From contig CAVRXN010000003.1 of NCBI GenBank assembly GCA_963725235.1, positions 139,204 to 203,203 on the forward strand: a stretch of 64,000 bases of DNA, written 5' to 3'. Positions 6,602-61,400 of this stretch are shown here, one piece after another. A model generated the notes under the pieces. That model was not told the origin of the DNA, did no database searches, and saw nothing but the letters and a program-made list of their open reading frames with translations. How positions within the stretch are numbered: position 1 is the stretch's first letter; every line of letters starts with the position of its first letter. Both the position numbers and the translations under genes were made by a program. Source of the stretch: an uncultured bacterium (lineage in GTDB: Bacteria > Patescibacteriota > Minisyncoccia > UBA6257 > 2-01-FULL-56-20).

Positions 6602-7598
6602 TCAAACCACCTGCACCTCCTCCTCCAGCGCCACGCCAAACTTCCGTTTCACCTCCGCCTTCGCAAGCGCAATCAAATTTTTCACATCACCCGCACCGGC
6701 GTTCCAAACATTAACGATAAAGTTCGGATGCTTCGCCGAGATCATCGCGCCACCGAAACTGACGCCGCGCAAACCGATCTCCGAAATCAATTTCGCCGCC
6801 GAAATGACGGGGAATGGATCCGTCTTCACAGAAAACTGCGCGCCGCGAAACGTGAGACTGCACCATTTTGTCATTTTACTGGCACGCGTCGGCACCGGCA
6901 CATTCTTGAAAATACTCCCGATATTCGGATATTCAAGCGGATGATTTTTCTTGCGATATTCGATCTTTTCACGAATCGCCCGCATGATCGCTTTCTTATC
7001 GCCTTTCGCCATCGCGAGCGTCACGGATAAAATAATTTCACCCGCCATACCTGCACCGTCCCGCGCTGCAATATTCTTAAAAACGCTATCACGATAACCA
7101 AACTTGCACGCCCGCGCCATTCGCTCGACAATCTTTTCGCTCTTTATATTGAAACTGCGGACGGACACGACAGCATCTTTTATCTCTCCGCCAAAACATC
7201 CAGCGTTCCCGCGGATCGCGCCGCCGAGCGTACCTGGCAATCCGCCCGCCCATTCCAAACCTGACAACGACTTCGATGTCGCATAATTAAGCAGCTTCGC
7301 CATCGAAACTCCCGCGCCGGCTTCGATGACAATTTCGCGCGCGCCAGTTTTCGATCGAACTGTTTTCGCGGCAACCCCCATCATCGCCGGCTTCAGACAC
7401 CAATCCATAAAACCCGGCATCACAGAACAATAAATTCGTCCCGCCGCCCAAAACAAAAATCGGCAGCTTGCGCGTCTTCGCCTCGCGAACCGCCCACGCA
7501 ACTTCGCGCTCATTTTTCGGTTCAAAAAAATAGCGGGCAATGCCGCCTATTTTGTAATTACTGAATTTCGCGAGCGAAACATTCTCCTGGAATTTCAT
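6602..7598 (-). pseudogene. murB: UDP-N-acetylenolpyruvoylglucosamine reductase MurB with one frameshift
   Basis: The N-terminus MKFQENVSLAKFSNYKIGG...VLGGGTNLLFCDAGFYGLV is in the frame of 7598. It continues as LKPAMMGV...GLEWAGGLPGTLGGAIRGNAGCFGGE...HPNFIVN in ORF 6602-7540. One extra base near 7397 (gtg-t-ctg on the coding strand). Confidence 0.85.
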
Positions 7599-7659
7599 TT
7601 AATCAAGATTTAATTTTTGCACGGCGCACATATACGGCGCAATCCATAAACATAGCAAA

Positions 7660-7722
7660 AGCCGCTCCGCTCAAAACTCTCAATTCTCGACTACAGGTAT
7701 AAAAGTTCTGAACGGAGCGGCT
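7660..7722 (-). terminator. hairpin plus U-run inside the murB upstream region (possible attenuator)
   Basis: 10-bp stem AGCCGCTCCG/CGGAGCGGCT enclosing 43 nt. Followed on the minus strand by UUUUG, about 60 nt upstream of the murB ATG. Confidence 0.35.
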
Positions 7723-7790
7723 AAGGTGACCTCCAATTCTGTTGTTATTGAATGAGTGCTCTATAGCTGCTCCACAATCATTATACATTA

Positions 7791-7817
7791 TTAAAACCAA
7801 AAACCCCCAATCGGGGG
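7791..7817 (-). terminator. intrinsic terminator-like hairpin
   Basis: Minus strand reads CCCCC-GAUU-GGGGG followed by UUUUUGGUUUU. Confidence 0.45.
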
Positions 7818-7892
7818 ATTCGGCAACAGAATTTTGCGGGACATACCTGAGCCGATATCATCGTTCGGGTATGCTCACACTCATTCATTGCT

Positions 7893-7921
7893 ATTGTAGC
7901 ATAGACCTAAATATTTTGCAA
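7893..7921 (-). promoter_or_regulatory. sigma70-like promoter (TTGCAA-17-TACAAT)
   Basis: On the minus strand: -35 TTGCAA (7916-7921), 17-nt spacer, -10 TACAAT (7893-7898). It points toward murB and would start a transcript near 7886. Confidence 0.5.
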
Positions 7922-7943
7922 GAGCCCGGCATTTATTCACAGT

Positions 7944-8011
7944 AAACACCCTAACAAAAAGGGGGCGAATGCGTTCTGACGCCTCTTCGCCCCCTTTTTG
8001 TTAGGGTGTTT
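7944..8011. repeat. nested palindromic hairpin element, member 1 (putative bidirectional terminator family)
   Basis: AAACACCCTAAC-AAAAAGGGGGCGAA-TGCG-TTCTGA-CGCC-TCTTCGCCCCCTTTTT-GTTAGGGTGTTT. It ends 3 nt after the stop of the DsbA-like gene. Confidence 0.75.
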
Positions 8012-8014
8012 GAG

Positions 8015-8770
8015 TTACTTCGCCGCCGCAATCGCCGCGTCGATAGTCTGCTGGAACTGCGCGTACGGCTGAGCACCAAGAACCTGCGTGCCGTTAATAT
8101 AGAACGTCGGGGTCGAGTTAACTCCTTGCGCGGTCGCATCCGTCTTTTCCTGGTTAACGATCGAGAGATCGCTCTGGTTGTTGACGCAGCTCGTGAACGT
8201 CGTCATATTCAAACCAACCTGCTGGCCAAGTTTTAGCAGCTCGGCAGTCGAGAAAAATCCATCGTCCTCACTCCCTCCGCCCTGATCATCGGCAACTTTC
8301 GCCGTGTACAACGCATCATGATACAGCCACATCTTGCCCTGATCGTTCGCGCACTGCGCCGCATTCGCAGCCGCCGTCGATTCGGCGCCTAGGAACGCAA
8401 AATCCCGGAACACAAATTTAACTTTGCCGGTGTTCACATAATTTTGGATAATCTGCGGCTCCGTCTGCGCAAAAAATTCTTCACCGCAGAACGGACACTG
8501 ATAATCACCGTACTCGATCATCGTGACCGGCGCATTCGCTTGACCCAAAATTGCATCACGCGAGGTCAACGCCATAACAGCAGTATTCGTCGCATTCGTC
8601 GGCGCAGTGCCAGCAGCAGCCGCACCCGCTCCAGCGCCTGCACCCGTCGTCGCTATCCCGGTATATTTATTATAAAAAGTCGAGAATACTACCGCACCAC
8701 CAATCAACACCGCCGCGATCAAGATGCTGATCGGCAAAAACCGATCCTTTTTTTCAGAGTTATGTTCCAT
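8015..8770 (-). CDS. DsbA-family thiol:disulfide oxidoreductase, membrane-anchored
   Basis: N-terminal TM helix (FLPISILIAAVLIGGAVVF), an Ala/Gly/Thr-rich linker and thioredoxin-fold active site YGDYQCPFCGEEF (CxxC). Confidence 0.8.
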   Translation of the reverse strand: MEHNSEKKDRFLPISILIAAVLIGGAVVFSTFYNKYTGIATTGAGAGAGAAAAGTAPTNATNTAVMALTSRDAILGQANAPVTMIEYGDYQCPFCGEEFFAQTEPQIIQNYVNTGKVKFVFRDFAFLGAESTAAANAAQCANDQGKMWLYHDALYTAKVADDQGGGSEDDGFFSTAELLKLGQQVGLNMTTFTSCVNNQSDLSIVNQEKTDATAQGVNSTPTFYINGTQVLGAQPYAQFQQTIDAAIAAAK

Positions 8771-13260: not shown

Positions 13261-13296
13261 CAGCGCGTTCCACTGGAAAACAGGCCATTTCCGCGC

Positions 13297-13302
13297 TATA
13301 AT
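13297..13302 (+). promoter_or_regulatory. -10 box TATAAT 6 nt upstream of ATG (leaderless GT4 gene)
   Basis: TGGAAA-17-TATAAT-aaccca-ATG(13309). No Shine-Dalgarno possible. Confidence 0.5.
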
Positions 13303-13308
13303 AACCCA

Positions 13309-14523
13309 ATGCGCATTGCGATCTGTTCGGATAACTTTTATCCGGAACTCTCGGGGATTTCCGATTCGGTGATCAGCTTGGCAAAAGAACTCGCAAAACG
13401 CGGGCACCAGATTCATTTCTATGCGCCGCGCTATTCGGCGGCCGAGTTCGCGAAATCGAATCTGCCGGACCGAGAGCTCGACCTCGGCCCGAATGTCGGT
13501 TTCACGCGTTTCGTTTCTTCATACTTCGGCTCCGGCTCCGGCCAGGGCCGCATGGTCTTGCCGTACGGTCTCCGCTGGCTCCAAGTCCGCGAATTCGACC
13601 CCGATGTCATCCACACGCAAACTTTTTTCGGCGTCGGCATGGAAGCGCTCCTCGCAAGCCGCGCGCTCCACAAGCCCCTCGTCGGCACGAACCATACCGC
13701 CATTAAAAGTTTCTTAATTTATAACCCGATCAAAACAAAATGGATGGATACCGGCATCATTAAATACGTCAACTGGTTCTACGGCCGGTGCGAAATCGTG
13801 ACCGCACCATCGCGCTCGGTCTTCACCGAAATGGAAGCCGAAGGATTCCACAAAAACGGCATCGCGCTTTCGAATCCGATCGAAACAGAAATTTTCAAAC
13901 CGCTCGCGAACCGCGACGCGTTGCGCAAAAAATTTAAAATCGGCGAGAACGCGATCATCCATGCCGGTCGCCTCGCAAAAGAACGCAGCATCGACGTCAT
14001 GATCCGCGCGCTGCCGCTCGTGCGCCGCACGATTCCGGATGCGGAGCTCGTTTTCTCCGGCCGCGGTGCGGATGAACAAGAATTCCGAAAACTCGCGAAA
14101 GATCTCGGCGTCGAAAACGCAGTTAAATTCCTCGGCTTCCTCGACCAGCCCGAACTCGTCGAAGTCTACAATGCCGGCAAAGTGTTCGCGATAACAAGCA
14201 CGAGTGACACGCAAAGCATGGTCATGATGCAGGCGATGGCATGCGGCATCCCGGTCGTCGGCGTGAATGCACGAGCGCTGCCGGAATATATCAACGAAAC
14301 GAACGGCTTCATAGTCGACCCCGGCGACCCAACAGCGCTCGCTGAACGGCTCGTCGCGGTCTTGAAAGATCCGAAGCTTGAAGCTACACTGGGTGCCGGT
14401 GGCCGTAAAACCGCGCTCCAGTTCTCGCCGGAGCGAATCGCCGACCGCTGGGAAGCCATCTACCGGGCGGCAATCGACCGGCACGGCGAACGGCGCGCCC
14501 GCGAACGCAGCGGAAACCGCTAA
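13309..14523 (+). CDS. GT4 family glycosyltransferase
   Basis: 404 aa, MRIAICSDNFYPELSGISDSV N-terminus and C-terminal GT1/GT4 motif (FAITSTSDTQSMVMMQAMACGIPVVG). Confidence 0.85.
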   Translation: MRIAICSDNFYPELSGISDSVISLAKELAKRGHQIHFYAPRYSAAEFAKSNLPDRELDLGPNVGFTRFVSSYFGSGSGQGRMVLPYGLRWLQVREFDPDVIHTQTFFGVGMEALLASRALHKPLVGTNHTAIKSFLIYNPIKTKWMDTGIIKYVNWFYGRCEIVTAPSRSVFTEMEAEGFHKNGIALSNPIETEIFKPLANRDALRKKFKIGENAIIHAGRLAKERSIDVMIRALPLVRRTIPDAELVFSGRGADEQEFRKLAKDLGVENAVKFLGFLDQPELVEVYNAGKVFAITSTSDTQSMVMMQAMACGIPVVGVNARALPEYINETNGFIVDPGDPTALAERLVAVLKDPKLEATLGAGGRKTALQFSPERIADRWEAIYRAAIDRHGERRARERSGNR

Positions 14524-15297: not shown

Positions 15298-16640
15298 CCA
15301 ATCGCACTAAAATTTTTCTATTATTTCTCGGCGACATCGTCGCGCTCTACGTTGCGCTATTCTTAACACTCATCGTCCGCTATGGCTGCGGTTCATCCGA
15401 TAACTTTATCGATACAAATCTCATCCCCTTCTCCATAATCTTTATCATCTGGCTCATCATTTTTTTCATCGCCGGCCTCTACGACCTTCGCCGCCTGCGC
15501 GACAATCTCGATTTCGTAAAAACAGCTGTGGCTCGCGATCGTAACGAGCGCTATAATTTCCATCGTAATCTTCTACGCCATCCCATTCTTCGGCATCACC
15601 CCAAAAACTAATCTTATTTATTTTCGTCAATCATTTTCGCCATCGTTGAAACGCTCTGGCGCCGCGCGTTCAACCGCGCGACAAGCACGGGCGAAGCGCC
15701 AAACCGAGTTATTGCTGATCGGCAACGGCGATGCGGTCATTGAAGTGGAACGAGCGGTGCGGGAAAATCCCCAGCTCGGCTACGAGATCGGCGCGCGCTT
15801 GAACGAATCGGATGCACTCGCAACGCCGGATTCGTTGACGCAAACGCCATACATGAAAAAAATATTAACTGCGTCGTCGTCCCACGTTCGCTGAAACGCG
15901 CAGGCCATCTGCCGGCAACGCTCTATAAATTGTTCGCCTCGGGCATTCTCGTTATGGATTTGCCCAATTTCTACGAAACCGTGATGCGCAAAGTGCCACT
16001 TGCCGATCTCGAAGAAACCTGGTTTCTGGAGAACATCGAGAGCTCGGCGCAGTTTTATGATCCATTGAAACGCGCCTGGGAATTTATTGCCGCCCTCGTG
16101 ATCGGCATCGTACTGCTACCGTTTGAAATCTTGATCGCGCTCATCGTCGTCATCAGTTCCCCCGGCCCGATCATCTATAAACAAACGCGTGTCGGCAAAA
16201 ACGGCCACGAATTCATGTTCTATAAATTCCGCATCGATGCGCCGCAGCGACGCCGAACGCCAGCGGCGCCCAATGGGCCCCCGGAAAAAGCGATACCCGC
16301 ATAACTCCGTTCGGCCGCTTCCTCCGCGCATCGCATCTCGACGAACTGCCGCAACTTTGGAACATCCTGCGCGGCGACATCTCGTTCGTCGGCCCGCGGC
16401 CCGAACGGCCCGAATTCGTCGCGAAGCTGCGAAAAGCAAATCCCCTATTACGAAACGCGGTTGCTAACGAAACCAGGTATAACCGGCTGGGCGCAGCTGA
16501 ACCACCGCGCCGACATCGACCTCGAAGACGTCCGGCAAAAATTGCAGTATGATATATATTATCTGAAGAACAGGTCGCTCATCCTCGACCTCGCGATCAT
16601 CGCAAAAACCGGCAAATCACTATTTAGCAACCCAACATAA
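15294..16640 (+). pseudogene. polyprenyl-phosphate sugar phosphotransferase (WbaP/EpsL-type 'bacterial sugar transferase'), multiply frameshifted
   Basis: Start overlaps the GT2 stop (ATGA). TM-rich N-terminus. Catalytic domain pieces [52 protein letters not shown] and [11 protein letters not shown] lie in different frames. One example is an extra g in aaaa-g-caaatc near 16438. Confidence 0.85.
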
Positions 16641-42035: not shown

Positions 42036-43039
42036 CTGTGAATTACGAAATTCCCTTTTTCATATGAATACGGAGAACGCAAAGGAACCGCAGTGGTCTG
42101 CGGATTTCAAGTTTTTTGAACAGGACCCATCAAACACACAAAAGAAAGTTACTTGCTGAGCACAAAGGAACAGACAGCGTTCGCGTAGTTCGCGAGGTAG
42201 CCGTCAACGGAACGCGGCAGCGACGTCACGAGGCCGTAGAACAGTTTCATGGAGCGGAAGTCGAATTCGATCTGGAACCTCGACCGGTAGAGCTTCAACT
42301 GCCAGGGCAGGGCGAGCTTCTTCATGCTCCTGAGCGGGCGGATCATGACCCACCGCTTGCCATCGATGTTCATATCCTTCTCCAGTTGCTTCGAGACATA
42401 GCCCGCATCGGCAACGATGACACCGTTAATATCTTTGTTCACGGAACGGAAAAGGTCGCGGTCATTCTTCGTCGCATCCGAGAACCGGATGCCGAGGATG
42501 TTTCCGTCCGCATCCCGCGTCATCGTCATTTTGAGCCCGTAATACCAGCCTTTCGAGCTCCTGCCGAGGGATGCGAACGCTTTCATCACCCGGTGGGAAT
42601 CGGCATTCTTCTTGAGGCAGACCGGAAGGTCGGTCGCATCCGTGTACTTCACGAGATGCCCATGGGCCTTTCCCCATTGCATGATGATCGCGAGGATCTT
42701 CATCGCGAAAACGCCGGCACGGTTCATGGCAACGACAAGCGTCTTGTATGAGCAGGCGAGCCCATCCTTGAAATCCTCGTATACGGACTTCTTCGTAGCC
42801 CGTGTGCTCGCATGCTGGTAGAGGGCTAATGCCACCGCATCCAGATTTTCAATTTTCAGAGGTCGACCTTGGGGATTCTTTTTGTGTGTCAGATTGAGCT
42901 TGAATGATGTTACAATATCAGTGATCCTGTTCTTGAGATTTCTCAAGATGGGTGAATTCATTTTGTCGTGAGAGGCGCCTTCGGGCGCCTTTTGCATTAT
43001 GCCGTATTCATATGAAAAAGGGAATTTCGTAATTCACAG
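42036..43039 (-). mobile_element. IS982-family insertion sequence (1004 bp)
   Basis: Perfect 38-bp terminal inverted repeats CTGTGAATTACGAAATTCCCTTTTTCATATGAATACGG (42036-42073, reverse complement at 43002-43039). Flanked by the 8-bp direct repeat CATCAAGG (42028-42035 and 43040-43047). Confidence 0.85.
42149..42997 (-). CDS. IS982-family DDE transposase
   Basis: DATDLPVCLKKNADSHRV...GRSSKGWYYGLKMTM...VIVADAGYVSKQL...SLPRSVDGYLANY matches my recollection of IS982 transposases. A GGCGCC-TTCG-GGCGCC hairpin (42972-42989) lies between two candidate starts (42997, 42961). Confidence 0.8.
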   Translation of the reverse strand: MQKAPEGASHDKMNSPILRNLKNRITDIVTSFKLNLTHKKNPQGRPLKIENLDAVALALYQHASTRATKKSVYEDFKDGLACSYKTLVVAMNRAGVFAMKILAIIMQWGKAHGHLVKYTDATDLPVCLKKNADSHRVMKAFASLGRSSKGWYYGLKMTMTRDADGNILGIRFSDATKNDRDLFRSVNKDINGVIVADAGYVSKQLEKDMNIDGKRWVMIRPLRSMKKLALPWQLKLYRSRFQIEFDFRSMKLFYGLVTSLPRSVDGYLANYANAVCSFVLSK

Positions 43040-46443: not shown

Positions 46444-46529
46444 AGGCCAGACGTGAGCAGGGCAGCAAAAAAACCGAGTCGGTTCTGACCGCTTCTCGGT
46501 TTTTTTGCTGCCCTGCTCACCCCTGGCCT
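46444..46529. repeat. nested palindromic hairpin element, member 2
   Basis: AGGCCAG-ac-GTGAGCAGGGCAGC-AAAAAAACCGAG-TCGG-TTCTGA-CCGC-TTCTCGGTTTTTTT-GCTGCCCTGCTCAC-cc-CTGGCCT. The right end overlaps the rny stop codon. Confidence 0.75.
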
Positions 46530-48071
46530 ATCTTGCGTATTCAACTGCCCGAATTTCCCGGATGACATTCACTTTAATTTCGCCGGGATACTTCAGTTCC
46601 GATTGTATCTTGTTCGCTATCTCGCGCGCAAGTTCAAGCGCGCGGAAGTCGTCGATCTTTTCCGGAACGACGAAGACGCGGAGTTCACGGCCTGCTGCAA
46701 TCGCATACGCGTTTTTGACGCCAGGGAATTCATCAGCGAGCTTCTCGAGATCGCCCAGGCGTTTAATATAATTTTCGAGCGTACCGCGCCGCGCACCCGG
46801 CCGCGCCGCTGACAAAACGTCCGCCGCAGTAACGATATATGCTTCCGGTCGCGCATACGGATAATCCTCATGATGCGACTGCATCGCTTCGACAACCGCT
46901 TCATCGACGCCATATTTCCGTAGAATCTTTATGCCAAGCTCAACATGCGTCCCTTCGACCTCGTGGTCGATCGCTTTGCCGATATCGTGCAACAACGCGC
47001 CCCGCTTCGCAACGTCGGCGTTCAAACCAAGCTCGCGCGCCATCATCTCGGCGATATAGGCCATCTCGGTCGAGTGGATCAAAACGTTCTGCCCAAAGCT
47101 CGTGCGGAAATGCAGCCGACCAAGCAGTTGCAGCAATTCTTTCGGCAAACCATAAACACCAAGATCCTCGCCGCCGCTTCGCCAATTTCCTGCGTCCGCT
47201 TCGCGAGCTCCGTCTTCGCCTCTTCAACTTTCTCCTCAATCTTCGCCGGCTGGATGCGGCCATCTTTCACCAATTTCTCAAGCGCCATGCGCGCCATCTC
47301 GCGGCGGAACGGATCGAAGGACGAAATAATAATCGCTTCCGGCGCTTCGTCGATGATAAATTCGACGCCAGTCGCGCGTTCGAGCGCGCGGATATTGCGG
47401 CCTTCGCGGCCGATAATTTTGCCTTTCAGATCCTCGTCCGCGAGCGGGAACATCGTCGTCGTAATTTCTGCGACATGCGAACGCGCGTAGCGCTGCAGCG
47501 CGATCGTAATAATTTCCGCCGACTTTCTTTTCGATCTCATCGCGATTCTCGCGGTCAATCTTTCTGGATGCGCTGAGCCAGATCATGCGAACGATCTTCT
47601 TGCGCCTGCCTCATAATCTCCTCGCGCGCCTGCGACAACTGACAAGCCAGCGATTTTTTCCAATCGCCCCGAAACCTCGCCTTCGCGTTCGGCCAGCTCC
47701 GCCTCCTTCGCCTTCATCTTTTCCTCCTTCGCTCGCTAGCTTCGTTTCCTCCGGCTTCGACATCCGCCGACTTTCTTATCGAGCGTTTCTTCTTTTTTCA
47801 ATAAATGCGCTTCAAGCGCATCAATCTCTTTCCGCCGCTTCTTCTCATCATTTTGAGAATCAACCAAAAGCGAGGCTGCTTTTTCTTTCGCCTCGACGAC
47901 AATTTCCTTGGCTTTCGCCTCCGCGTCAGCCAGATTCTTTTTAATTTTTTCTTCTATCTTCTGTTCTTCGCCCGCAAACTGCTTAGCCGCCCAGTACCGA
48001 CGAACCAGATACCCCACGGCGATGCCGACTATAAGAGCGGCAGCCGCAACCAGCGCTGTTGATGCTTGCAT
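46528..48071 (-). pseudogene. rny: ribonuclease Y, frame broken at four or more sites
   Basis: N-terminal TM helix plus coiled coil (47736-48071). KH domain KGKIIGREGRNIRALERATGV (47079-47558). HD domain LLHDIGKAIDHEVEGTH and C-terminus (46528-47148). The pieces lie in different frames. Confidence 0.85.
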
Positions 48072-48238
48072 GATAATTAGTTAATGAAATGCACATAAAT
48101 TTAATGACTTTTAATGTCATTATGATACTCCGGATTCATCCTTTGGTCAATCCTTTCCCTCCTGCCTTGCAAAAAAGCGAAGATTCTTCAAACAAAGCTG
48201 TATTTTTTGGCCATGTTTGTTTTCTGCCAATGACTCGT

Positions 48239-48312
48239 CGCCCTGCCCTGCAGCGCAAAAGAGCAAATCGGTTCTTACCGCTCTTTGCTCTTTTGCGCTG
48301 CAGGGCAGGGCG
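48239..48312. repeat. nested palindromic hairpin element, member 3
   Basis: CGCCCTGCCCTGCAGCGC-AAAAGAGCAAA-TCGG-TTCTTA-CCGC-TCTTTGCTCTTTT-GCGCTGCAGGGCAGGGCG. Lies in the divergent rny/gpmI intergenic region. Confidence 0.75.
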
Positions 48313-48319
48313 AGATTCA

Positions 48320-48328
48320 TGTTAAAAT
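48320..48328 (+). promoter_or_regulatory. extended -10 (TGtTAAAAT) 6 nt upstream of the gpmI ATG (leaderless)
   Basis: TCATGTTAAAAT-aaccac-ATG(48335). Confidence 0.45.
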
Positions 48329-48334
48329 AACCAC

Positions 48335-49894
48335 ATGGCCAAGAAAACAACTGTCCTCATCGTCCTCGATGGCTGGGGTATCGGGCGGCACGATGAAACG
48401 AATCCGATCTGGGTGGTGAAGCCACCGACGTTCGAGTGGCTGCGCGAAAATTATCCGATGACGAGCTTACAGGCATCGGGCATCGCCGTCGGCTTGCCGT
48501 GGGGCGAAGTCGGCAACAGCGAAGTGGGCCACATGACGCTCGGCGCCGGAAAAGTGCTCTACCAATACTTCCCAAAGATCACGATGGCGATCCAAGACGG
48601 AACATTTTTTGAAAACCAGATTTTGAAAGACGCGTTTGCACATGCGAAACAGACCGGCGGTGCGGTAAATTTTGCCGGCTTGCTGACGAAAGGCAACGTC
48701 CACGCATCGCTCGACCACCTCCTCGCGCTCATTAAAATGGCGCGAACCGAACTCGGCGACAACGCGAAAATAAATCTGCACCTTTTCGCCGACGGAAAAG
48801 ACAGCCCGCCGCATACACTGACAACTTTCCTCAAAGAAGTCCCGCACGAATATCTCGCATCGCTCATTGGCCGCTACTACGCGATGGACCGCAACAGCAA
48901 CTGGCGCCTAACGCAAACTGCGTACGAAACGATGACCGGCCAAATCGGCCAAATCGTCGACGATCCGGCGGCGATTATAGATGCGACCTACAAACAAAAT
49001 ATGACCGAGGAATATTTGCCGCCGATCCGGTTTGGTACCGACCAAGCGACAGCCGACGCAAAAAAAATAAAAGATGGCGACGCCCTCATCTTTTTCAACT
49101 ACCGCGAAGACAGCATCCGCCAGCTCGCCTCGTCATTTATTTTAAAAAGTTTTAATGAATTCCCGGTCCTGCCGCTGCAAAATTTGTTTATCGCAACCAT
49201 GAGCCACTATCGCGATGATTTCGACGTTCCCGTCATTTTTCCGGCCGACACGGTAGAAAATCCCATCGGAAAAATTTTCTCCGACCGCGGCATGTCCCAA
49301 CTGCGCCTCGCCGAAACGTATAAGTACGCGCACGTAACATATTTTTTTAATGGTCTCCGCGAACCGCCGTTCCCCGGTGAGTTCCGAACGCTCATCCCCT
49401 CAATCTCGGAAGTTCATCCCGAAGAACATCCCGAAATGATGGCAAGCTCGATAACCGACCGCTTGATCGAAGCCGTCCAAAGCAAGGGGTTCGATTTCAT
49501 CCTCGTCAATTATGCGAATCCCGACACGATCGCACACACCGCCGACTACAACGCCTCGCTCGAAGCCGTGCGCGTCATCGACCGTGAAATCGCGCGCGTC
49601 CTCGCCGTCGCCCAAACTCCCGACGTCCTCCTCGTCATTACCGCCGACCACGGCAACATAGAAGAATTGATCAGCCCGACAACCGGCCTTGCCGAAAGCC
49701 AACACGACCCCAGCCCCGTCCCGCTTTACATCATCGCCCCCGAATTCAAGGGCCGCAAATTTATGAACGCCGACACGTTCGAAACCGAAACCCTCGGCTC
49801 CCTCGCCGACGTTGCGCCAACCATTCTCGCCATCATGGGCATCCCCAAAGCGCCCGACATGAACGGCAGGAGCTTGCTTGACAATTTGATATAA
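48335..49894 (+). CDS. gpmI: 2,3-bisphosphoglycerate-independent phosphoglycerate mutase
   Basis: VLIVLDGWG, GNSEVGHMTLGAG and ADHGN motifs. 519 aa. Confidence 0.9.
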   Translation: MAKKTTVLIVLDGWGIGRHDETNPIWVVKPPTFEWLRENYPMTSLQASGIAVGLPWGEVGNSEVGHMTLGAGKVLYQYFPKITMAIQDGTFFENQILKDAFAHAKQTGGAVNFAGLLTKGNVHASLDHLLALIKMARTELGDNAKINLHLFADGKDSPPHTLTTFLKEVPHEYLASLIGRYYAMDRNSNWRLTQTAYETMTGQIGQIVDDPAAIIDATYKQNMTEEYLPPIRFGTDQATADAKKIKDGDALIFFNYREDSIRQLASSFILKSFNEFPVLPLQNLFIATMSHYRDDFDVPVIFPADTVENPIGKIFSDRGMSQLRLAETYKYAHVTYFFNGLREPPFPGEFRTLIPSISEVHPEEHPEMMASSITDRLIEAVQSKGFDFILVNYANPDTIAHTADYNASLEAVRVIDREIARVLAVAQTPDVLLVITADHGNIEELISPTTGLAESQHDPSPVPLYIIAPEFKGRKFMNADTFETETLGSLADVAPTILAIMGIPKAPDMNGRSLLDNLI

Positions 49895-50343: not shown

Positions 50344-50385
50344 CCGCTCCGCGCACACCTCGTGCCCGGAGCGGTTTTTCATTTT
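50344..50385 (+). terminator. rho-independent terminator
   Basis: CCGCTCCG-(GCAC..GTGC)-CGGAGCGG followed by TTTTTCATTTTT. Confidence 0.65.
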
Positions 50386-50398
50386 TAGCAAGAATATG

Positions 50399-50478
50399 GG
50401 CATCCCGCAGGCATGCTGCAAAAGAGCGAATCCGTTCTTACGGCTCTTCGCTCTTTTGCAGCATGCCTGCGGGATGCC
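50399..50478. repeat. nested palindromic hairpin element, member 4
   Basis: GGCATCCCGCAGGCATGCTGC-AAAAGAGCGAA-TCCG-TTCTTA-CGGC-TCTTCGCTCTTTT-GCAGCATGCCTGCGGGATGCC. Confidence 0.75.
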
Positions 50479-50484
50479 GTGTCA

Positions 50485-50493
50485 TGTTATAAT
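50485..50493 (+). promoter_or_regulatory. extended -10 (TGtTATAAT) 6 nt upstream of ATG 50500 (leaderless)
   Basis: TCATGTTATAAT-gaaaaa-ATG. Confidence 0.45.
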
Positions 50494-50499
50494 GAAAAA

Positions 50500-50886
50500 A
50501 TGCACTGGCTCTTCAAGCTGATCCTTGTAACCGCTGGCAATGCATTCGCACTCTGGCTCGCGAACTGGGCGTCGATGCGCTACTTCCCCGGTTTCATCCT
50601 AAGCGCGCCGATCGTCGGCCTTATAATAATCGCGCTCATATTAACAATCCTCAATTTCCTCCTAAAACCAGTCCTGACTTTAATCCTCGGTCCGCTGATT
50701 ATCATCACGCTCGGCCTCGGCCTGATCGTCGTGAACGCAATCGTCATCTGGGTGCTCGCCTACCTTTCCAACCTGCCGCAGTTTGACTTTATGCACGGAA
50801 GTATTAGTATTCAATCGATTCCCGCCCTATTCTTCGCGACCATCATTATCAGCATCGTAAACTTCGTCATCCACCTGATTACTTAA
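50500..50886 (+). CDS. DUF360 / phage-holin-4-like membrane protein
   Basis: ORF 50413 trimmed to ATG 50500 (MHWLFKLILVTAGNAFALWLA...). Four TM helices. LLKPVLTLILGPLIIITLGL is typical of this family. Confidence 0.65.
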   Translation: MHWLFKLILVTAGNAFALWLANWASMRYFPGFILSAPIVGLIIIALILTILNFLLKPVLTLILGPLIIITLGLGLIVVNAIVIWVLAYLSNLPQFDFMHGSISIQSIPALFFATIIISIVNFVIHLIT

Positions 50887-52887: not shown

Positions 52888-52917
52888 TTGACTTCTTGAA
52901 TGGGTCCGTGCTACACT
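52888..52917 (+). promoter_or_regulatory. sigma70-like promoter (TTGACT-18-TACACT)
   Basis: Lies immediately after the terminator. It would make ATG 52900 non-coding and favours ATG 52966 as the LAGLIDADG start. Confidence 0.4.
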
Positions 52918-52965
52918 ACAATTTCCAAGGTTGAACTCTCCTCATTAAAAACCGACTGGAAATTT

Positions 52966-53601
52966 ATGCATCCACGGCAGAAAGAGATAATTTGGACACG
53001 AGAATTAGCTTACGCAGTCGGCTTGATAACGACGGATGGCTGCCTATATTCTAATGGCCGAACTTTCGATTTTACGTCAAAAGACAGGGACTTGGTTGAA
53101 ACTTTTTGCAACTGCTTAAAAATAGAAAATAGAATCGGCACGAAAAAAAACGGGCACGGAACATCAACTTGCTGGAGGGTCCAATTTGGAAATGTTGTCT
53201 TGTATAAATTTTTACTAGAAGTCGGCCTAATGCCAAACAGATCAAAAAAGCTTAAAGAGCTAAATATTCCTGAGGAACTTTTCTTTGATTTTCTTCGTGG
53301 ACATTTAGATGGGGATGGATCGGTAAAAAGGTACCAAGACCCGATTTGGCCTAAAAGTACGCGGCTATATGTAGTTTTTATATCTGCTTCATCTCCACAT
53401 CTTGTTTGGATAAAAGAAAAGGTAGAAGAACTGCTGGGAATTTCTGGATTTATTCAATTTCATTCGGGTATATACTCTGTGACATTCAGTAAACATAATT
53501 CGATCAAGTTATTAAATAAACTTTATCCTGATCCGGATGTTCCGTGCTTGAAAAGAAAATTTGATATTGCGAAAGAGTTTCTAACAATGCCGAGGTGGTG
53601 A
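52966..53601 (+). CDS. free-standing double-motif LAGLIDADG homing endonuclease
   Basis: Two LAGLIDADG motifs: LAYAVGLITTDGC and FFDFLRGHLDGDGS. The ORF track starts at 52900. The stop TGA (53599-53601) lies inside the tRNA-Leu gene. Confidence 0.8.
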   Translation: MHPRQKEIIWTRELAYAVGLITTDGCLYSNGRTFDFTSKDRDLVETFCNCLKIENRIGTKKNGHGTSTCWRVQFGNVVLYKFLLEVGLMPNRSKKLKELNIPEELFFDFLRGHLDGDGSVKRYQDPIWPKSTRLYVVFISASSPHLVWIKEKVEELLGISGFIQFHSGIYSVTFSKHNSIKLLNKLYPDPDVPCLKRKFDIAKEFLTMPRW

Positions 53602-53675
53602 AATTGGCAGACACGTAGCGTTCAGGGCGCTATGACCGCAAGGTCGTAGGGGTTCAAATCCCCTCCTCGGCACCA
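53589..53675 (+). tRNA. tRNA-Leu (anticodon CAG), class II with long variable arm, encoded CCA
   Basis: Manual fold. Acceptor GCCGAGG/CCTCGGC and D stem GTG/CAC. Anticodon stem TAGCG/CGCTA with loop TTCAGGG. Variable arm GACC-GCAA-GGTC. T arm AGGGG-TTCAAAT-CCCCT, discriminator A, CCA. Confidence 0.9.
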
Positions 53676-54154: not shown

Positions 54155-56234
54155 ATGATTAAAAAACCTGATTCAACTGAAAACAATAAAAAAGAGCAGC
54201 CGAAGGAGCGCGCGCGCATAAAGCCGCCTGAGATTCGGCCGCGGCCAAAGATCGAACCGAAAGAGCCGGGCACGATTCAGATTGGCCGCACGGAAGAGCG
54301 CTACATAAATAGCGAGCGGGGCGAGGATCGGAACGGTGCTGACCGAAACCGCCCGCACGGCGGAAACAGCGGCGGAAGCAACAGTGGTCGACCAGGCGGC
54401 GGCCGCAGCAATCGCCCACCGCGCCGCCAAAGCTTACCGCCAGTTGGCGCCATCAGCCGCTCGAGCGCATCGAAGTTCGGCAACGGCCATCTCGGCCAGT
54501 TCGGCTCGAACGGAAACGGTGGCGCAAACGCAGCTGGCGCAAACGCCGCAGCAATCCCACCCGGCAACCCCGACGCCGTCCGCTTCGTCCCGCTCGGCGG
54601 CCTCGAAGAAGTCGGCCGCAACTGCATGTTCCTCGAATACAAAAACGAGATCGTCATCATCGACGTCGGTTTACAATTCCCGGAAGATGAAACGCCGGGC
54701 ATCGACTACATCATTCCGAACATCCAATATCTCGAAAAGAAAAAGCAAAACATCGCCGCGATCATTTTAACGCACGGCCACTACGACCATATCGGCGCGC
54801 TCCCGCATCTCCTCGGCAAACTCGGCAATCCCCCGATCTACGCGACATCGATCACGAAGGCAATCATCGAAAAGCGCCAGGACGATTTTCCGAATTCGCC
54901 GAAAATGAAAATTATCACGGTGAAGAATCGGCGACGAGATGAAAATCTCGCCGAACTTCGACGCCGTGTTCTTCGGCGTGCCGCACACGATCCCAGAAAC
55001 GACCGGCGTTTTGATGAAAACGCCGGCCGGCAACATCGTCCACTTCGCCGACTTCCGCGTCGACTACAACGACGAAGGCGAGCCGCAGGGCCTCGACGAG
55101 TTCGAGCGGATCGGCAAGATGGGCGTCCACAGCTTTATGGTAGACAGCACGAACGCGGAAAAGCCCGGCCACTCGGTCTCCGAAAAAACCGTCGAGCGCA
55201 ATCTCGAAGAAATTTTCAAAGCTGCTGAAGGCCGCATCATCGTCGCAACATTCGCATCGCTCCTGACCCGCATCGCGGAGATCATCAAGATCGCCGAAAA
55301 GCTCGGCCGCAAAGTCGCGCTGAACGGCTACTCGATGAAAACCAACATCCAGATCGCGGAACAGCTCGGCTTCATCAAAGCGAAAGAAGGCACGATCATT
55401 TCCGTCGAGGAAGTTGCAAAATACAGCGACGACAAAATCATGATTTTGTCGACCGGCGCGCAGGGCGAATCGAACGCCGGCCTGATGAAAATGATCAACG
55501 GCGAACATCGCCACATCAAGATCAAACCAGGCGACACGTTCGTCTTCTCGTCGTCCGTCATCCCGGGCAACGAACGCAGCGTGCAGTCCGTTAAAGACAA
55601 CCTCGCGCGCCAGGGCGCCATCGTTTTCCATCCGCACTCGTCGACATCCACTCATCCGGCCATGCGCCGAAGGAGGACTTGAAGCTCGTGATGAAACTCA
55701 TCAAGCCGAAATTCCTGATTCCGGTGCACGGCTATTATTTCATGCGCGCCGCGAACGGCCAGTCCGCGCGCGAAGTCGGCATCCCGCGAGAGAACGTCAT
55801 TCTGATGGACAACGGCCAAGTCGCCGAACTAACGCCCGGCGAATTCAAGATCACGAAAGAAACCGTGCCCGCATACTACGTCATGGTTGACGGTCTTGGC
55901 GTTGGCGACGTCGAAGAAGTCGTCTTGCGCGACCGCCGCGCACTCGCCGCGGAAGGCATGATGATCATCATCCTGACGATGGGCGCCGGCAAAGGCGGTC
56001 GCCTGCTCAAAAACCCCGACATCATCTCCCGCGGCTTCATCTACTTAAAAGAGAACCAGGAAATGCTCGACGAAATCCGCAAACGCATCCGCGCCGTCAT
56101 GCAACGCATGCCAGCACAACCAAGAAATCGAACCCGATTACCTGAAAACGCTAATCCGCGACCAAGTCGGCCAATTCATCTATAACAAAACCCGCCGCCG
56201 TCCGATGATTTTGCCGGTCGTGATTGAGGTGTAA
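54155..56234 (+). pseudogene. rnj: ribonuclease J with three or more frameshifts and an N-terminal low-complexity extension
   Basis: Metallo-beta-lactamase motif LTHGHYDHIGALPHL, a beta-CASP region, DIHSSGHAPKEDLKL and C-terminal RRRPMILPVVIEV* (stop 56232-56234). Frame changes near 54929, 55635 and 56110. The first ~150 aa are K/E/P/R/G/N-rich. Confidence 0.85.
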
Positions 56235-56264: not shown

Positions 56265-56346
56265 AAAGGAACTATTGCCACAGAGAGTCCATCTCAAAGC
56301 TCAGGATCGATCGGTTCGTCATGAGCTTCGAGATGGATTCCGGGCA

Positions 56347-58451: not shown

Positions 58452-61400
58452 CTACCCCAATTTTCGCAACCCGATCCAAGCGCTCTGCCCATCAAGCTTA
58501 ACCTCCTCTTCCGCGTCAAATTTATCCGACCGCTTATACTCAATCGTCTGTGCCCCGACATCATTTTTAATGATATTTTCATGTTTCTCCAGTGCGCCGC
58601 GAACTTCTTCCGGTACTCCAACCATCAATGCGATAGAATCCTTCGGTTCGAGGCCGGCTTTTTGCCGCAACTCTTGCACCATGCGAATGACGTCGCGCAA
58701 TTGGCCCTCCTCGCGCAACTCCGGCGTGATCGCCGCATCGAGCGCGACGTCACCTTCTATCGCGGCATCAAACAAAATCTCTTTGACGTTCACTTCGTCC
58801 GCCAAAATGGCGAGCAGCGGTTTATTATTTTTTAATGTTTCATCTCTAACCGTCAAACTTTTCAACGGCTGGCGAACTTTTACTTTCGCCTCCGCGCGCT
58901 TTGCGAGGCCTGTCGCCGCCAGCTGCCGAATGATCGCCATATTCTTAATCAGCTCCCTTGTCTCTTTGTCCTCTTGTCCCCTGTCTCTTCCATTCGCCGG
59001 CCACTCCTCTAAATGCACCGACTCTTTCCCACCGCCAAGCGCCGCATGCAAAATTTCCGAGAAGAACGGCGTGAATGGCGCCATCAATTTCGTAAGCTGC
59101 ATCAACACAAATCCAAGCGTCGCCGAAGCGACTTCATAATCGCGCGCACCCTCCGCGCTATCATCCGGTCGCTGCAGCCGCCGCCGCGACCGGCGAATAT
59201 ACCAGCGCGACAAATCGTCGACAAAACCTTCGATCTCGAGCGCTGCCTCGCGAACCTGATATGCTTCCAATTTCTCCGTCACCGAACCAGCAAGCTCATC
59301 AAACCGAGCCAAAATCCATCGGTCCAAAACATTCTCCATCTCTTCGTTTCTTGTCCCCGTGTCCTTCCGTCTCTTTGTCTCTTTGTCTTTCTTCGCATAC
59401 GTCCGCCAAAAAACAAACGAGTTATAAATGATCAAATGCACTTGCCGCAACTTCTTCGCCACCTCCGCCTCGTCGAAATTTTTCGGCTCGCCGAACGGCG
59501 TCCCTGCATAAAAATACCAGCGCACCGCATCGACGCCATATTTGTCGATAATCTCGAATGGCTCGATGACGTTGCCCTTCGACTTCGACATCTTGTTGCC
59601 GAACTTATCGTTCATCAAACCGAACGTGATGACATTGCGATACGGCGCTTCATAGCCAAGCGCCGTCGCGATCGCGAGCATCGTGTAAAACCAACCGCGC
59701 GTCTGGTCGATACCTTCGGCGATATAATCGGCAGGATATTCATTCGGTTTCGGATTTTTTGACGACCCACGCGCACCTTCAAACGGAAAGTGTTGTTGCG
59801 CATACGGCATCGCACCCGAATCGTACCAAACGTCCGCAACCGCACGCACACGTTTCATCTCGCCATCGCATTTTCTGTCCGTGCACGGCAATGTAATTTC
59901 ATCAACGAACGGCCGGTGCAAATCGATGAGACCCGTGTCGTCACGCGGGATCGTCTTCAGTGAAAGCTCTTCAATTACGCCCGTTGTCGGATATAACCCT
60001 TCCTTATTTTTCCTTTCCTCGATCGCACGCTTCTCCGACCACCCAAGAGCAACTTCCAGCATCATCCAGATCGGATCGCCATGACTTACTATTAAAATAT
60101 TTTTACCTTCGTACTCCTTCTCACAATCCTGCAAAAATTTCCAGACGCGCTGCCGCAGATGACGGAGAGATTCAACGCCCTCAATCCCATGCTCAAATCG
60201 CATCTCGTACGTCGGCAACCGATCAACGTATTCCGAAATCGGACGCCCTTCGTATTTCGGTCCCCAGCCAAGCTCATTGAGCCGCTTATCCGATCTTATC
60301 GGTGCATTGAAAACTTCTCCGGCAATAGCACCCGTTTCCTTAGTACGCAAAATTTCCGACGTGAAAATGATGTCTATTTTTTGGTGCTTCAATTCTTTCT
60401 TAAGCTGCAGTAAAGAAAGTTCAGCTTCTTCTTTTCCCTTCGGCGTAATATGAAAATTCTGCGAGCCCGTATCAAGAATACCCAGCATATTCCCCTCGGA
60501 TTCTCCATGCCGCATCACCCAATAGTTATTCTTCGAGCCACCGGCGAGTTGCGACAACTGCTCCAAACTCTCAACCACCTCCGTCTGCCCACACTTCGCA
60601 CATTCCCAGACCGGCAGCGGCGCACCCCAATACCGCTCGCGCGACAAGTTCCAATCCTTTGCCTCACGCAGCCATTCGCCAAACCGGCCTTCCTTAATAT
60701 ACTCCGGCATCCAGTGAATCGTTTCATTATTTTTTAACAATTCCTTGCGAAGCCGCGACATGCCAATAAACCAGGAGGTTCGCGCGTAATATAAGAGCGC
60801 CGTACCGCAGCGCCAACAAAATGGATATTCGTGCGTATAATTCTCGACGCGCAATAAATTATTATGCCGATCCAGATGCGCAAAAATCTTATCCTCCGTC
60901 TCGCGCGATTTAACATACTCCCCCGCAAGCTCCGGCACATCTTTCATAAACTTCCCCTCTTCGGTGACCGTATGATACTGCGGCAACCCCACTTTCTTCC
61001 CAAGCTCGTAGTCATCCTCGCCATACATCACTGCCGTATGCACGACACCTGTTCCTTCGGTCGTCGTCACGAAATCAGCCGCATATATTTTGTATGCTTC
61101 CGGTTTTTGCAGCGGCGCGACTTCGAAGAGTGGCTCGTATTCGACGCCGATCAGGTCTTTGCCTTTGATATCATCGTGAACAATTTCAATCTCTTCATTT
61201 TTAAAAACTGTTTTTACCAGATCGCTCGCAAGAATATATAATTCTTTGACATCTTTCACGCGAAGCGCGGTGTATGAAATTTTTTCGCCAACCGCGAGCG
61301 CAACATTCCCCGGCAGCGTCCATGGCGTAGTCGTCCATGAAAGGACATAAACATTTTGGCCGGGCAAACCAATTTTTTCTGGATTTTTTAACTTGAATTT

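Follow-up and report, generated by a model that had tools for sequence, protein, structure and literature searches.

Four near-perfect palindromes, here called E1 to E4, are dispersed along a 64-kb stretch of contig CAVRXN010000003.1 (the whole of which is referred to as the window), and together with six copies on other contigs they constitute a hairpin family that is real, discrete and previously undescribed, and that belongs to a narrow lineage of ultra-small bacteria (Patescibacteria, Paceibacterota-like). The interpretation preferred here, which we regard as about evenly balanced between right and wrong, is that of a small (42-86 bp) palindromic element, restricted to this lineage and prone to insertion, which also serves as a two-way terminator and whose asymmetric tip is read by a factor. 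The Patescibacteria, or Candidate Phyla Radiation (CPR), have tiny and gene-dense genomes in which the ending of transcripts and small mobile DNA are hardly known, and should the tip prove to be read by a protein, the family would offer a handle on a new nucleic-acid-binding activity in uncultivated bacteria.

A repeat search of the window (GC content 50%) returned E1-E4 as its four longest inverted repeats, with arms of 26-35 nt, a complementarity of 94-100% and, in every case, a spacer of exactly 16 nt (Table 1). The 16-nt core, T-SSG-TTCTKA-CSS-CTY, was searched as the pattern TSSGTTCTKACSSCTY with at most one mismatch, and its four matches in the window are all exact and all on the plus strand; 0.07 matches would be expected by chance, and none of 100 shuffled sequences reached four. 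In each element the parts follow the same order, namely an outer arm of 12-23 nt, a tract of four to seven A residues, an inner arm of 5-9 nt, the core, the inner complement, a tract of four to seven T residues and the outer complement. An earlier note on this DNA had described four nested hairpins with a shared order of parts and near-perfect pairing, and the repeat search, the core pattern and the family model described below all confirm this; the element E3 itself stands, but its limits, given as 48239-48312, are really one base wider on each side (48238-48313). Both arm mismatches of E2 fall in its outermost arm.

As RNA, each of E1-E4 folds into one hairpin, with free energies between -51 and -73 kcal/mol (z-scores of -12 to -15) that are nearly equal for the two strands. 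In the predicted fold the T and A that flank TCTK would pair, giving a 4-bp apical stem SSGU/ACSS with a UCUK tetraloop, and this stem would rest on a 1 x 3 asymmetric internal loop in which U lies opposite CUY. The apical loop GTTCT(G/T)AC of the earlier note is thus conserved as a sequence, but its outer T and A are predicted to be paired and the loop proper to be the tetraloop UCUK.

An alignment was built from ten copies, namely E1-E4 and those on contigs L029, L038, L057, L060, L063 and L064. Standard pairs fill 94.7% of its cells, as against 43-53% when the partner column is slid, although pairing was part of what identified the metagenomic members, so that this subset is not an unbiased sample. 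Changes on both sides are found in 20 of the 24 stem pairs, and no shuffle matched any of the observed measures. Invariant columns are concentrated in the unpaired tip (6 of 8) relative to the paired inner and apical stems (5 of 26; Fisher p = 0.007). Five pairs are imperfect; read as core-sense RNA three of them are G-U, and read as antisense RNA one is, a difference that is not significant. The earlier argument that a fixed tip combined with free yet complementary stems points to selection on structure and to a reader of the tip is upheld by the pairing, the both-sided changes and the distribution of invariant columns.

A covariance model made from the ten copies scores E1-E4 at 73.5-75.8 bits on the plus strand and the same four sites at 37-41 bits on the minus strand, while the best other site in the window reaches 14 bits; no copy beyond those listed was found with it in 133 kb of related loci. 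The family is discrete and has a well-defined orientation. No Rfam family reached its gathering threshold, and the matches below threshold were to microRNA-precursor models only, which scored 17-38 bits where 50-195 would be required.

From copy to copy the outer arms show essentially no relationship, as had been claimed at the outset: the only shared words are a 9-mer in E2 and E3 and an 8-mer in E3 and the L063 copy, both flipped and at non-matching positions, and a 9-mer was reached by 30 of 2000 shuffles. In nine of the ten copies the outer arm, 12-23 bp long, is perfectly paired and specific to its locus. The 38-nt inner module, on the other hand, is identical in the L060 and L029 copies, which have unrelated outer arms and lie at unrelated loci, and across genomes two inner-module subtypes recur, GAA-T...CTC-TTC and GAG-T...CTT-CTC. 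This common module, the recurring subtypes and the existence of a copy without long arms on L064 show that the inner module is the unit of homology, to which outer arms are added, or in which they are replaced, locally; fold-back priming from the A/T-paired 3' end is one possible route. The outermost right arm of E2 resembles the 3' flank of the RNase Y gene (rny) on L029, a weak hint that one arm may derive from the local flank.

How the arms evolve can be followed at E3, which has an orthologue on L029. The two differ at 15 of 76 positions, including six fully compensated pairs (two each in the outer arm, the inner arm and the apical stem), one G-T pair and one change in the loop (at K), whereas third codon positions of the adjacent gpmI gene differ at 32% and flanking sequence at 36-48% in the same comparison. 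As the stems change at about two-thirds of the silent rate and yet stay perfect, their pairing would be maintained by hairpin-templated correction, that is, template switching within the palindrome, in preference to slow compensatory selection.

Table 1. The ten copies and their parts. Positions of E1-E4 refer to the window and those of the other copies to their own contigs; cores of E1-E4 were located by the core pattern search, and scores are those of the covariance model of the family.
Copy	Position	Strand	Length (nt)	Repeat arms (nt; complementarity)	Outer arm	A tract	Inner arm	Core	Inner complement	T tract	Outer complement	Score (bits)	Remarks
E1	7944-8011	+	68	26; 100%	7944-7955	A5, 7956-7960	7961-7969	7970-7985, TGCGTTCTGACGCCTC	7986-7994	T5, 7995-7999	8000-8011	74.3	
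E2	46444-46529	+	86	35; 94%	46444-46466	A7, 46467-46473	46474-46478	46479-46494, TCGGTTCTGACCGCTT	46495-46499	T7, 46500-46506	46507-46529	73.5	GAG-T...CTT-CTC subtype
E3	48238-48313	+	76	30; 100%	48238-48256	A4, 48257-48260	48261-48267	48268-48283, TCGGTTCTTACCGCTC	48284-48290	T4, 48291-48294	48295-48313	75.8	
E4	50399-50478	+	80	32; 100%	50399-50419	A4, 50420-50423	50424-50430	50431-50446, TCCGTTCTTACGGCTC	50447-50453	T4, 50454-50457	50458-50478	75.8	
L029	3053-3126												orthologue of E3; A/T tract 4 nt
L038	1507-1577		71										in frame within ligA
L057	1856-1921												after nrdB
L060	669-736												between unnamed ORF and convergent rplU
L063	850-921												after rplL
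L064	1603-1644												after rplY; inner module without long outer arms; A/T tract 4 nt

Distribution, empty sites and gene context

The six copies outside the window share the architecture of E1-E4 and all lie on Patescibacteria-like contigs with a GC content of 0.51-0.54; the closest named homologues of GpmI, DsbA and the L038 LigA are labelled Candidatus Paceibacterota or Patescibacteria, which would place the window's organism in that lineage, and contigs of 0.8 Mb from relatives agree with the small genomes known there. The contig L029 comes from a relative with a GpmI that is 89% identical, and it is at the orthologous locus that it holds the counterpart of E3. Collections were scanned with a strict pattern, AAAA-N5-9-TSSGTTCTNACSSCT-N6-10-TTTT. 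In 185,579 species-representative genomes it gave 27 matches, about the number expected by chance, and none of the 27 had paired arms or belonged to the window's organism; among metagenome contigs the same pattern gave 36 matches, five of them true members (L038, L057, L060, L063 and L064), and among viral contigs a single match, a chance one. In literature searches no described palindromic repeat of Patescibacteria was found.

The window has roughly one element every 16 kb and L029 one every 15 kb, as opposed to no copy under the covariance model in about 118 kb of the relatives L030, L067, L068, L069, L073 and L074, including L067, in which GpmI is 90% identical. Counts of this kind are affected by assembly. 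The contig L001, from a near-identical strain (97.6% DNA identity) in which E3 is identical, starts inside the E2 core (window position 46480) and ends inside E4 (window position 50428), which shows that short-read assemblies break at these palindromes and thus that the family is under-counted in contig databases; the negative result from the genome collection is weakened accordingly. A practical effect is that the elements fragment the metagenome-assembled genomes of the lineage.

E1 is a clean extra block of 68 bp between the stop codon of dsbA and a conserved promoter, and it is absent from L073 and L074, whose DsbA proteins are 81-82% identical to that of the window. E4 is absent at the same site in L029, and E2 is absent in two more distant relatives, L030 (where the spacer is 23 nt) and L068. 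At the E2 position L068 carries another hairpin (8275-8347), ACCAAT-A5-GTTCTG ... GGGTT-TCTG-AACCC ... CAGAAC-T5-ATTGGT, which likewise has an outer arm, has tracts of A5 and T5, and ends in a TCTG tetraloop. Its G-U pairs form only in the plus sense, and it folds at -31.4 kcal/mol (z = -4.7) in the sense of the E2 core as against -17 kcal/mol (z = -1.0) in the other; this hairpin is perhaps a diverged relation of the family.

The copy on L038 lies inside a coding sequence. Here 71 nt are inserted in frame, with the core in the sense orientation, in ligA, the gene of an NAD-dependent DNA ligase, where they add about 24 residues directly upstream of the KxDG adenylation motif and leave 692 codons open; the added block is missing from E. 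coli LigA and from 40 Patescibacteria LigA homologues. No other observation speaks as strongly as this in-frame copy for arrival by insertion and against a local evolution of terminators. As a separate observation, the LigA segment upstream of KxDG (L038 1500-1600; homologues P0121-P0160; L071 995-1037; L072) is an insertion hot spot in Patescibacteria, with insertions of 10-45 residues and unrelated sequence, some of which are palindromic or repetitive as DNA. The insertions of L071 and L072 were considered as members of the family and rejected, their sequences being different and partly palindromic or repetitive.

Most copies abut the end of a gene. In the window, E1 is separated by 3 nt from the stop codon of a minus-strand dsbA-like gene (8015-8770) and lies 23 nt before a minus-strand promoter-like site, TTGCAA-17-TACAAT; the right arm of E2 overlaps the stop codon of the minus-strand rny by 2 nt, and a minus-strand wzy-like gene starts nearby at 46390. 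E3 lies between the divergent rny (minus strand) and gpmI (plus strand, ATG at 48335), with an extended -10 element, TGTTAAAAT, beginning 6 nt past it, and at its L029 orthologue a fic gene ends 42 nt upstream. An extended -10 element, TGTTATAAT, is likewise found 6 nt past E4, for a holin-like gene (ATG at about 50500). Elsewhere, the L060 copy overlaps the stop codon of an unnamed open reading frame (ORF) by 2 nt on its left and is 1 nt from the stop codon of the convergent rplU on its right, while the gaps are 2 nt to the rplL stop codon on L063, 5 nt to that of rplY on L064 and 16 nt to that of nrdB on L057. At the L029 copy and at E4 the nearest gene end is 42-75 nt away, and the L038 copy lies inside ligA. 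Genes of both strands end at elements, those of the minus strand at E1 and E2 and those of the core strand at the others; relative to transcription, six cores follow a core-strand gene, three abut the end of an opposite-strand gene, and L060 does both. Downstream, an extended -10 element TGnTAnAAT occurs on the core strand within 3-27 nt of six of the ten copies, in five of these six at 6-8 nt before an ATG. The usual order of gene end, element and next promoter fits a two-way terminator or insulator.

Many genes show TGnTAnAAT just 6-8 nt before the ATG and lack a Shine-Dalgarno sequence (48319-48337, 50485-50502 and 13292-13311, as well as sites on L029, L057 and L064), which suggests that leaderless mRNAs are common in the lineage.

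All ten copies have the arrangement of A4-7, stem and T4-7, with tracts of only 4 nt, short by canonical terminator standards, in E3, E4, L029 and L064, and the earlier proposal that the inner module is a bidirectional terminator is consistent with the gene context of most copies. The seven ordinary terminators considered in the window (12029, 13221, 39439, 52850, 3217, 23165 and 50344) have short stems and are without A-tract, core or outward-pairing flanks. The earlier contrast with such terminators, in which extra outer arms and a core were said to be absent, therefore stands for 12029, 13221, 39439 and 52850; across the lineage, however, the family is not alone in having A/T tracts and outward pairing, as relatives have core-less A5-stem-T5 terminators, some of which extend outward.

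Weighing the explanations

Under the preferred reading the elements would arrive by insertion, in the manner of a MITE (a miniature transposable element with inverted repeats), a repetitive extragenic palindromic (REP) element or a Rickettsia palindromic element (RPE), and would be tolerated chiefly at gene boundaries. There the inner module, transcribed in either direction, would form a 3'-end hairpin or terminate transcription both ways as an intrinsic terminator, and a transcript that read through would fold the whole duplex of 30-40 bp, long enough for RNase III. The invariant asymmetric tip would be recognised by a trans-acting factor, either a mobilising enzyme or an RNA- or DNA-binding protein, and the arms would stay paired by hairpin-templated correction or by fold-back copying in DNA, which could also create the locus-specific outer arms. 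Of the three candidates named in the earlier note, it is the REP-like element that gains most, from presence and absence in relatives and from the in-frame ligA copy, although the elements are not members of the REP family, having no conserved stem, no GTAG/CGTC tag and no RAYT gene among the window ORFs scanned. A repeat in which the tip is fixed and the stems are free inverts the design customary for MITEs and REPs, and this points to recognition of a folded tip and not of duplex ends.

A number of observations weigh against this reading. Nothing plausible as a mobilising enzyme was found among about 50 of the longer ORFs of the window, outside 24-38 kb, that were scanned with Pfam. None of E1, E4 or the ligA copy is flanked by a direct repeat when filled and empty sites are compared, so that no target-site duplication is seen; conserved termini and a shared terminal tetranucleotide are also lacking among the copies, the termini being in fact the least conserved part. 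One would expect a purely selfish family to leave decayed copies, and with the covariance model none was seen in the window and related loci; the sequence with which L029 opens (A9 ... CTTCTC ...) may be a decayed relic of E2, but it obtains no model score and is unproven. The known family amounts to ten copies. The ligase that carries the in-frame copy is without about 58 residues of its oligonucleotide/oligosaccharide-binding (OB) domain, and for this reason the host gene is perhaps decaying or misassembled. The terminator role meets its own difficulties, since no gene ends at E3 in the window, E4 lies 24 nt past the ordinary terminator of a 124-aa ORF (50344-50374, followed by a T-tract), the mere four T residues that precede the GC-rich arm of E3 and E4 would make a weak canonical terminator, and a simple terminator scan picks E2 alone among the elements. 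Finally, the orientation of the core is consistent with neither transcription nor GC skew, albeit in a small sample.

The window does contain an insertion sequence of about 970 bp (42054-43021), located in a polysaccharide-synthesis cluster and bounded by 20-bp terminal inverted repeats, CCTTTTTCATATGAATACGG; its DDE_Tnp_1_3 transposase (42149-42997, minus strand) is the only transposase found in the window. The inverted repeats CCTTTTTCATATGAATACGG are unrelated to the hairpin family, a further point against the preferred reading. A relationship between the right arm of E3 and the transposase gene, suggested by an exact match of 13 nt (42303-42315), was rejected as within chance (estimate about 0.1-0.15).

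The alternative that survives best, although we think it rather unlikely, is that these are resident, non-mobile host sites, that is, lineage-specific bidirectional terminators or 3'-end processing hairpins with a tip bound by a dedicated protein or ribonuclease, gained and lost as terminators are. The placement of most copies between stop codon and next promoter, the symmetry of the A/T tracts, the covarying stems with their conserved tip and the lack of decayed copies are all what such sites would display, and the G-U pairs (three of five imperfect pairs in core-sense RNA) and the much better folding in the core sense of the L068 hairpin at the E2 position are further points in their favour. 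What resident sites do not readily accommodate is the absence of whole blocks of 68-80 bp at the same sites in relatives, the in-frame copy within ligA, and an identical 38-nt module at unrelated loci of different genomes with unrelated outer arms; a 16-nt motif with its architecture is implausible as the repeated product of point mutation, and core orientation is not bound to the direction of the gene ending at an element, as E1 and E2 are antisense.

It has also to be considered that the elements act as DNA, extruding as cruciforms or as lagging-strand hairpins with a tip bound by a nucleoid- or gyrase-type factor or by an HUH or tyrosine recombinase, or serving as a replication-polar signal. 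This would account for the single orientation of E1-E4, in a window where GC skew is negative in every 4-kb bin and the adjoining genes run both ways, but on the metagenomic contigs the GC skew of the core strand takes both signs (-0.11 to +0.09). Arms that are perfect as DNA and not just G-U tolerant, stems that stay paired at about two-thirds of the silent rate, which hairpin-templated correction in DNA would make easier, and the breaking of short-read contigs at the elements all agree with this scenario, whereas neither the A/T tracts nor the close association with the ends of genes is accounted for, and no recombinase or HUH gene was found among the scanned window ORFs. Overall, a DNA-level site is an unlikely explanation.

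At least as doubtful is the reading that the family reflects a hitherto undescribed mechanism by which palindromes are made and spread, in which a hairpin module of about 40 nt would be recognised as a folded single strand by a lineage-specific enzyme and inserted, after which its 3' end, paired through the A/T tracts, would prime fold-back copying of 12-23 nt of flank into an outer arm. Insertion followed by fold-back copying would explain the fixed tip, the perfect and locus-specific arms, and the fact that arms extend as far as stop codons.

That the elements belong to a described family, whether REP elements or bacterial interspersed mosaic elements (BIME) with RAYT, Correia/NEMIS, RPE, integron attC sites or the stem-loop guide arrays of tandem interspersed guide RNA (TIGR) systems, is very improbable. 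The resemblance is a general one, to small palindromes at gene ends with one in-frame copy as in RPE, and it extends to TIGR systems, which occur in Patescibacteria and have stem-loop units with variable palindromic stems (PMC12045711). The present copies, by contrast, match no Rfam family at threshold, have unconserved stems and termini with no GTAG or CGTC tag, and are single and dispersed with no tandem arrays; R''/R' boxes and a box C/D pair with dual spacers are not found, nor is an integrase, Tas or RAYT gene nearby among the window ORFs scanned, and the pattern is absent, chance matches aside, from the 185,579 species-representative genomes and from the viral contigs. Chance or an assembly artefact, such as snap-back chimeras from amplification, can practically be dismissed: although the frameshifted rny, rnj and murB are signs of imperfect assembly in the window, the artefact explanation is effectively refuted by independent assemblies, with E3 identical in an independent Logan assembly and conserved with compensatory changes in a Joint Genome Institute (JGI) assembly of another species, five further copies from other projects, and 0.07 matches expected by chance.

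Other features of the window

Next to E1, the dsbA-murB spacer (7598-7930, minus strand; L073 10760-11050; L074 10790-11155) contains about 270 nt of nearly invariant non-coding sequence, whereas the flanking proteins are only about 80% identical in the same relatives. It comprises the promoter-like TTGCAA-17-TACAAT and an RNA of about 95 nt that ends at a terminator (7817 to 7804) and includes a covarying hairpin, CATACC..GGTATG in the window versus CATAGG..CCTATG in L073; beyond it come a motif TGTATAAT and the leader of murB, in which a hairpin (7722 to 7660) is conserved. The RNA and the leader share 10 nt of complementarity, UGAAUGAGUG / CACUCAUUCA. The spacer RNA has no Rfam match, and the arrangement could be that of a small RNA beside its target or of a riboswitch-like leader.

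Several reading frames are broken. The rny gene (46528-48071) differs from that of L001 by seven indels of one base each and by mismatches at 4.2%, although the two strains agree at 100% in the spacers beside it; rnj (54155-56185) is split into at least two ORFs and is intact, with 688 aa, in L029; the conserved ATG of murB (6602-7598) is out of frame with the long ORF; and a sugar transferase (15930-16304) is truncated, having 450 aa in L073. Either the assembly is locally in error or the genes are decaying.

The ORF at 52900-53601, which has a LAGLIDADG_3 domain, extends into tRNA-Leu(CAG) (53589-53675). The start codon (56321) of a Tyr/Trp-type tRNA synthetase gene lies within a hairpin at 56288-56337, whose stem of 16 bp has one mismatch and whose loop is 18 nt long, and the start site may be occluded by it; as a member of the family this hairpin was rejected, with only 12.8 bits under the family model. 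An isoleucyl-type tRNA synthetase of 1202 aa (58452-62060, minus strand) has a histidine-phosphatase domain (His_Phos_1) inserted in the middle of its catalytic domain, and this insertion is conserved in the relatives L029 and L030.

Comparison with known elements

One parallel is with the REP/BIME of proteobacteria. These are short extragenic palindromes at the 3' ends of genes, proposed to be terminators, barriers to mRNA decay and protein-binding sites, and to be mobilised via a single-stranded hairpin (PMC3733652). REP elements nevertheless have conserved stems, a GTAG/CGTC tag at one end, hundreds of often clustered copies and a RAYT gene, whereas the present family combines free stems with a fixed tip, occurs as single copies and has no RAYT among the scanned window ORFs. 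That the elements would turn out to be copies of a known REP or MITE family with conserved arms, a prospect raised in the earlier note, is not so, as the stems differ in nearly every column. MITEs are further distinguished by terminal inverted repeats that match an insertion sequence and by a target duplication; the termini of the hairpins are not conserved, and no such duplication was seen at E1, E4 or the ligA copy.

Correia elements can supply terminators and promoters. Small mobile palindromes, the Correia/NEMIS of Neisseria are co-transcribed with genes and form long RNA hairpins cut by RNase III, according to work cited in PMC4524435. Unlike the present elements, the termini of which are variable, they have conserved terminal inverted repeats of 26 bp, a TA target duplication and an internal integration host factor (IHF) site. 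The RPE of Rickettsia are palindromic insertions, in frame and translated as an extra surface segment, and the ligA copy of L038 is alike in this regard. RPE, however, are 100-150 bp long and conserved in sequence over their whole length, with neither A/T tracts nor the fixed-tip, free-stem design, and the hairpin family offers only one in-frame case, in a host gene that is possibly degenerate.

A fixed tip on long stems is also known from an organelle. The LIMP palindromes of the Lobosphaera incisa mitochondrion have stems of 20-40 bp around an invariant non-palindromic loop, are intergenic and coincide with breaks in RNA coverage; to their authors the constancy of the loop implied a function, for which a cruciform or processing by RNase III was suggested (PMC4524435). 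Apart from being organellar, LIMP stems consist of a repeated pentanucleotide that grows by slippage, and the loop occurs in both orientations, in contrast to the unique stem sequences and the A/T-tract collar described here. The paired DNA uptake sequences (DUS) of Neisseria and uptake signal sequences (USS) of Pasteurellaceae likewise place a genome-wide repeated motif inside terminator hairpins (PMC1852404), but in those the stem is made of the motif, present as an inverted pair, while in the hairpin family the motif is the unpaired asymmetric tip.

Other candidates were rejected. Integron attC sites were set aside as no R''/L'' and L'/R' boxes (RYYYAAC ... GTTRRRY), no integrase among the scanned window ORFs and no cassette array were found, AAC...GTT beside the tracts being present in E1 and L063 only among the ten copies. 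A TIGR-Tas array consists of tandem units with box C/D-like motifs, two spacers of 8-12 nt and an adjoining Nop-domain tas gene (PMC12045711); the hairpins are solitary and kilobases apart, have a 6-nt loop without dual spacers, and no Nop-domain ORF was found among those scanned. By-eye comparison of the tip with the K-turn, T-loop, anticodon loop, box C/D, attC and common operator consensus found none that fits. Although it does not conform to REP, MITE, attC or TIGR as these are defined, the hairpin family would best fit among elements that work like REP, Correia, RPE and LIMP.

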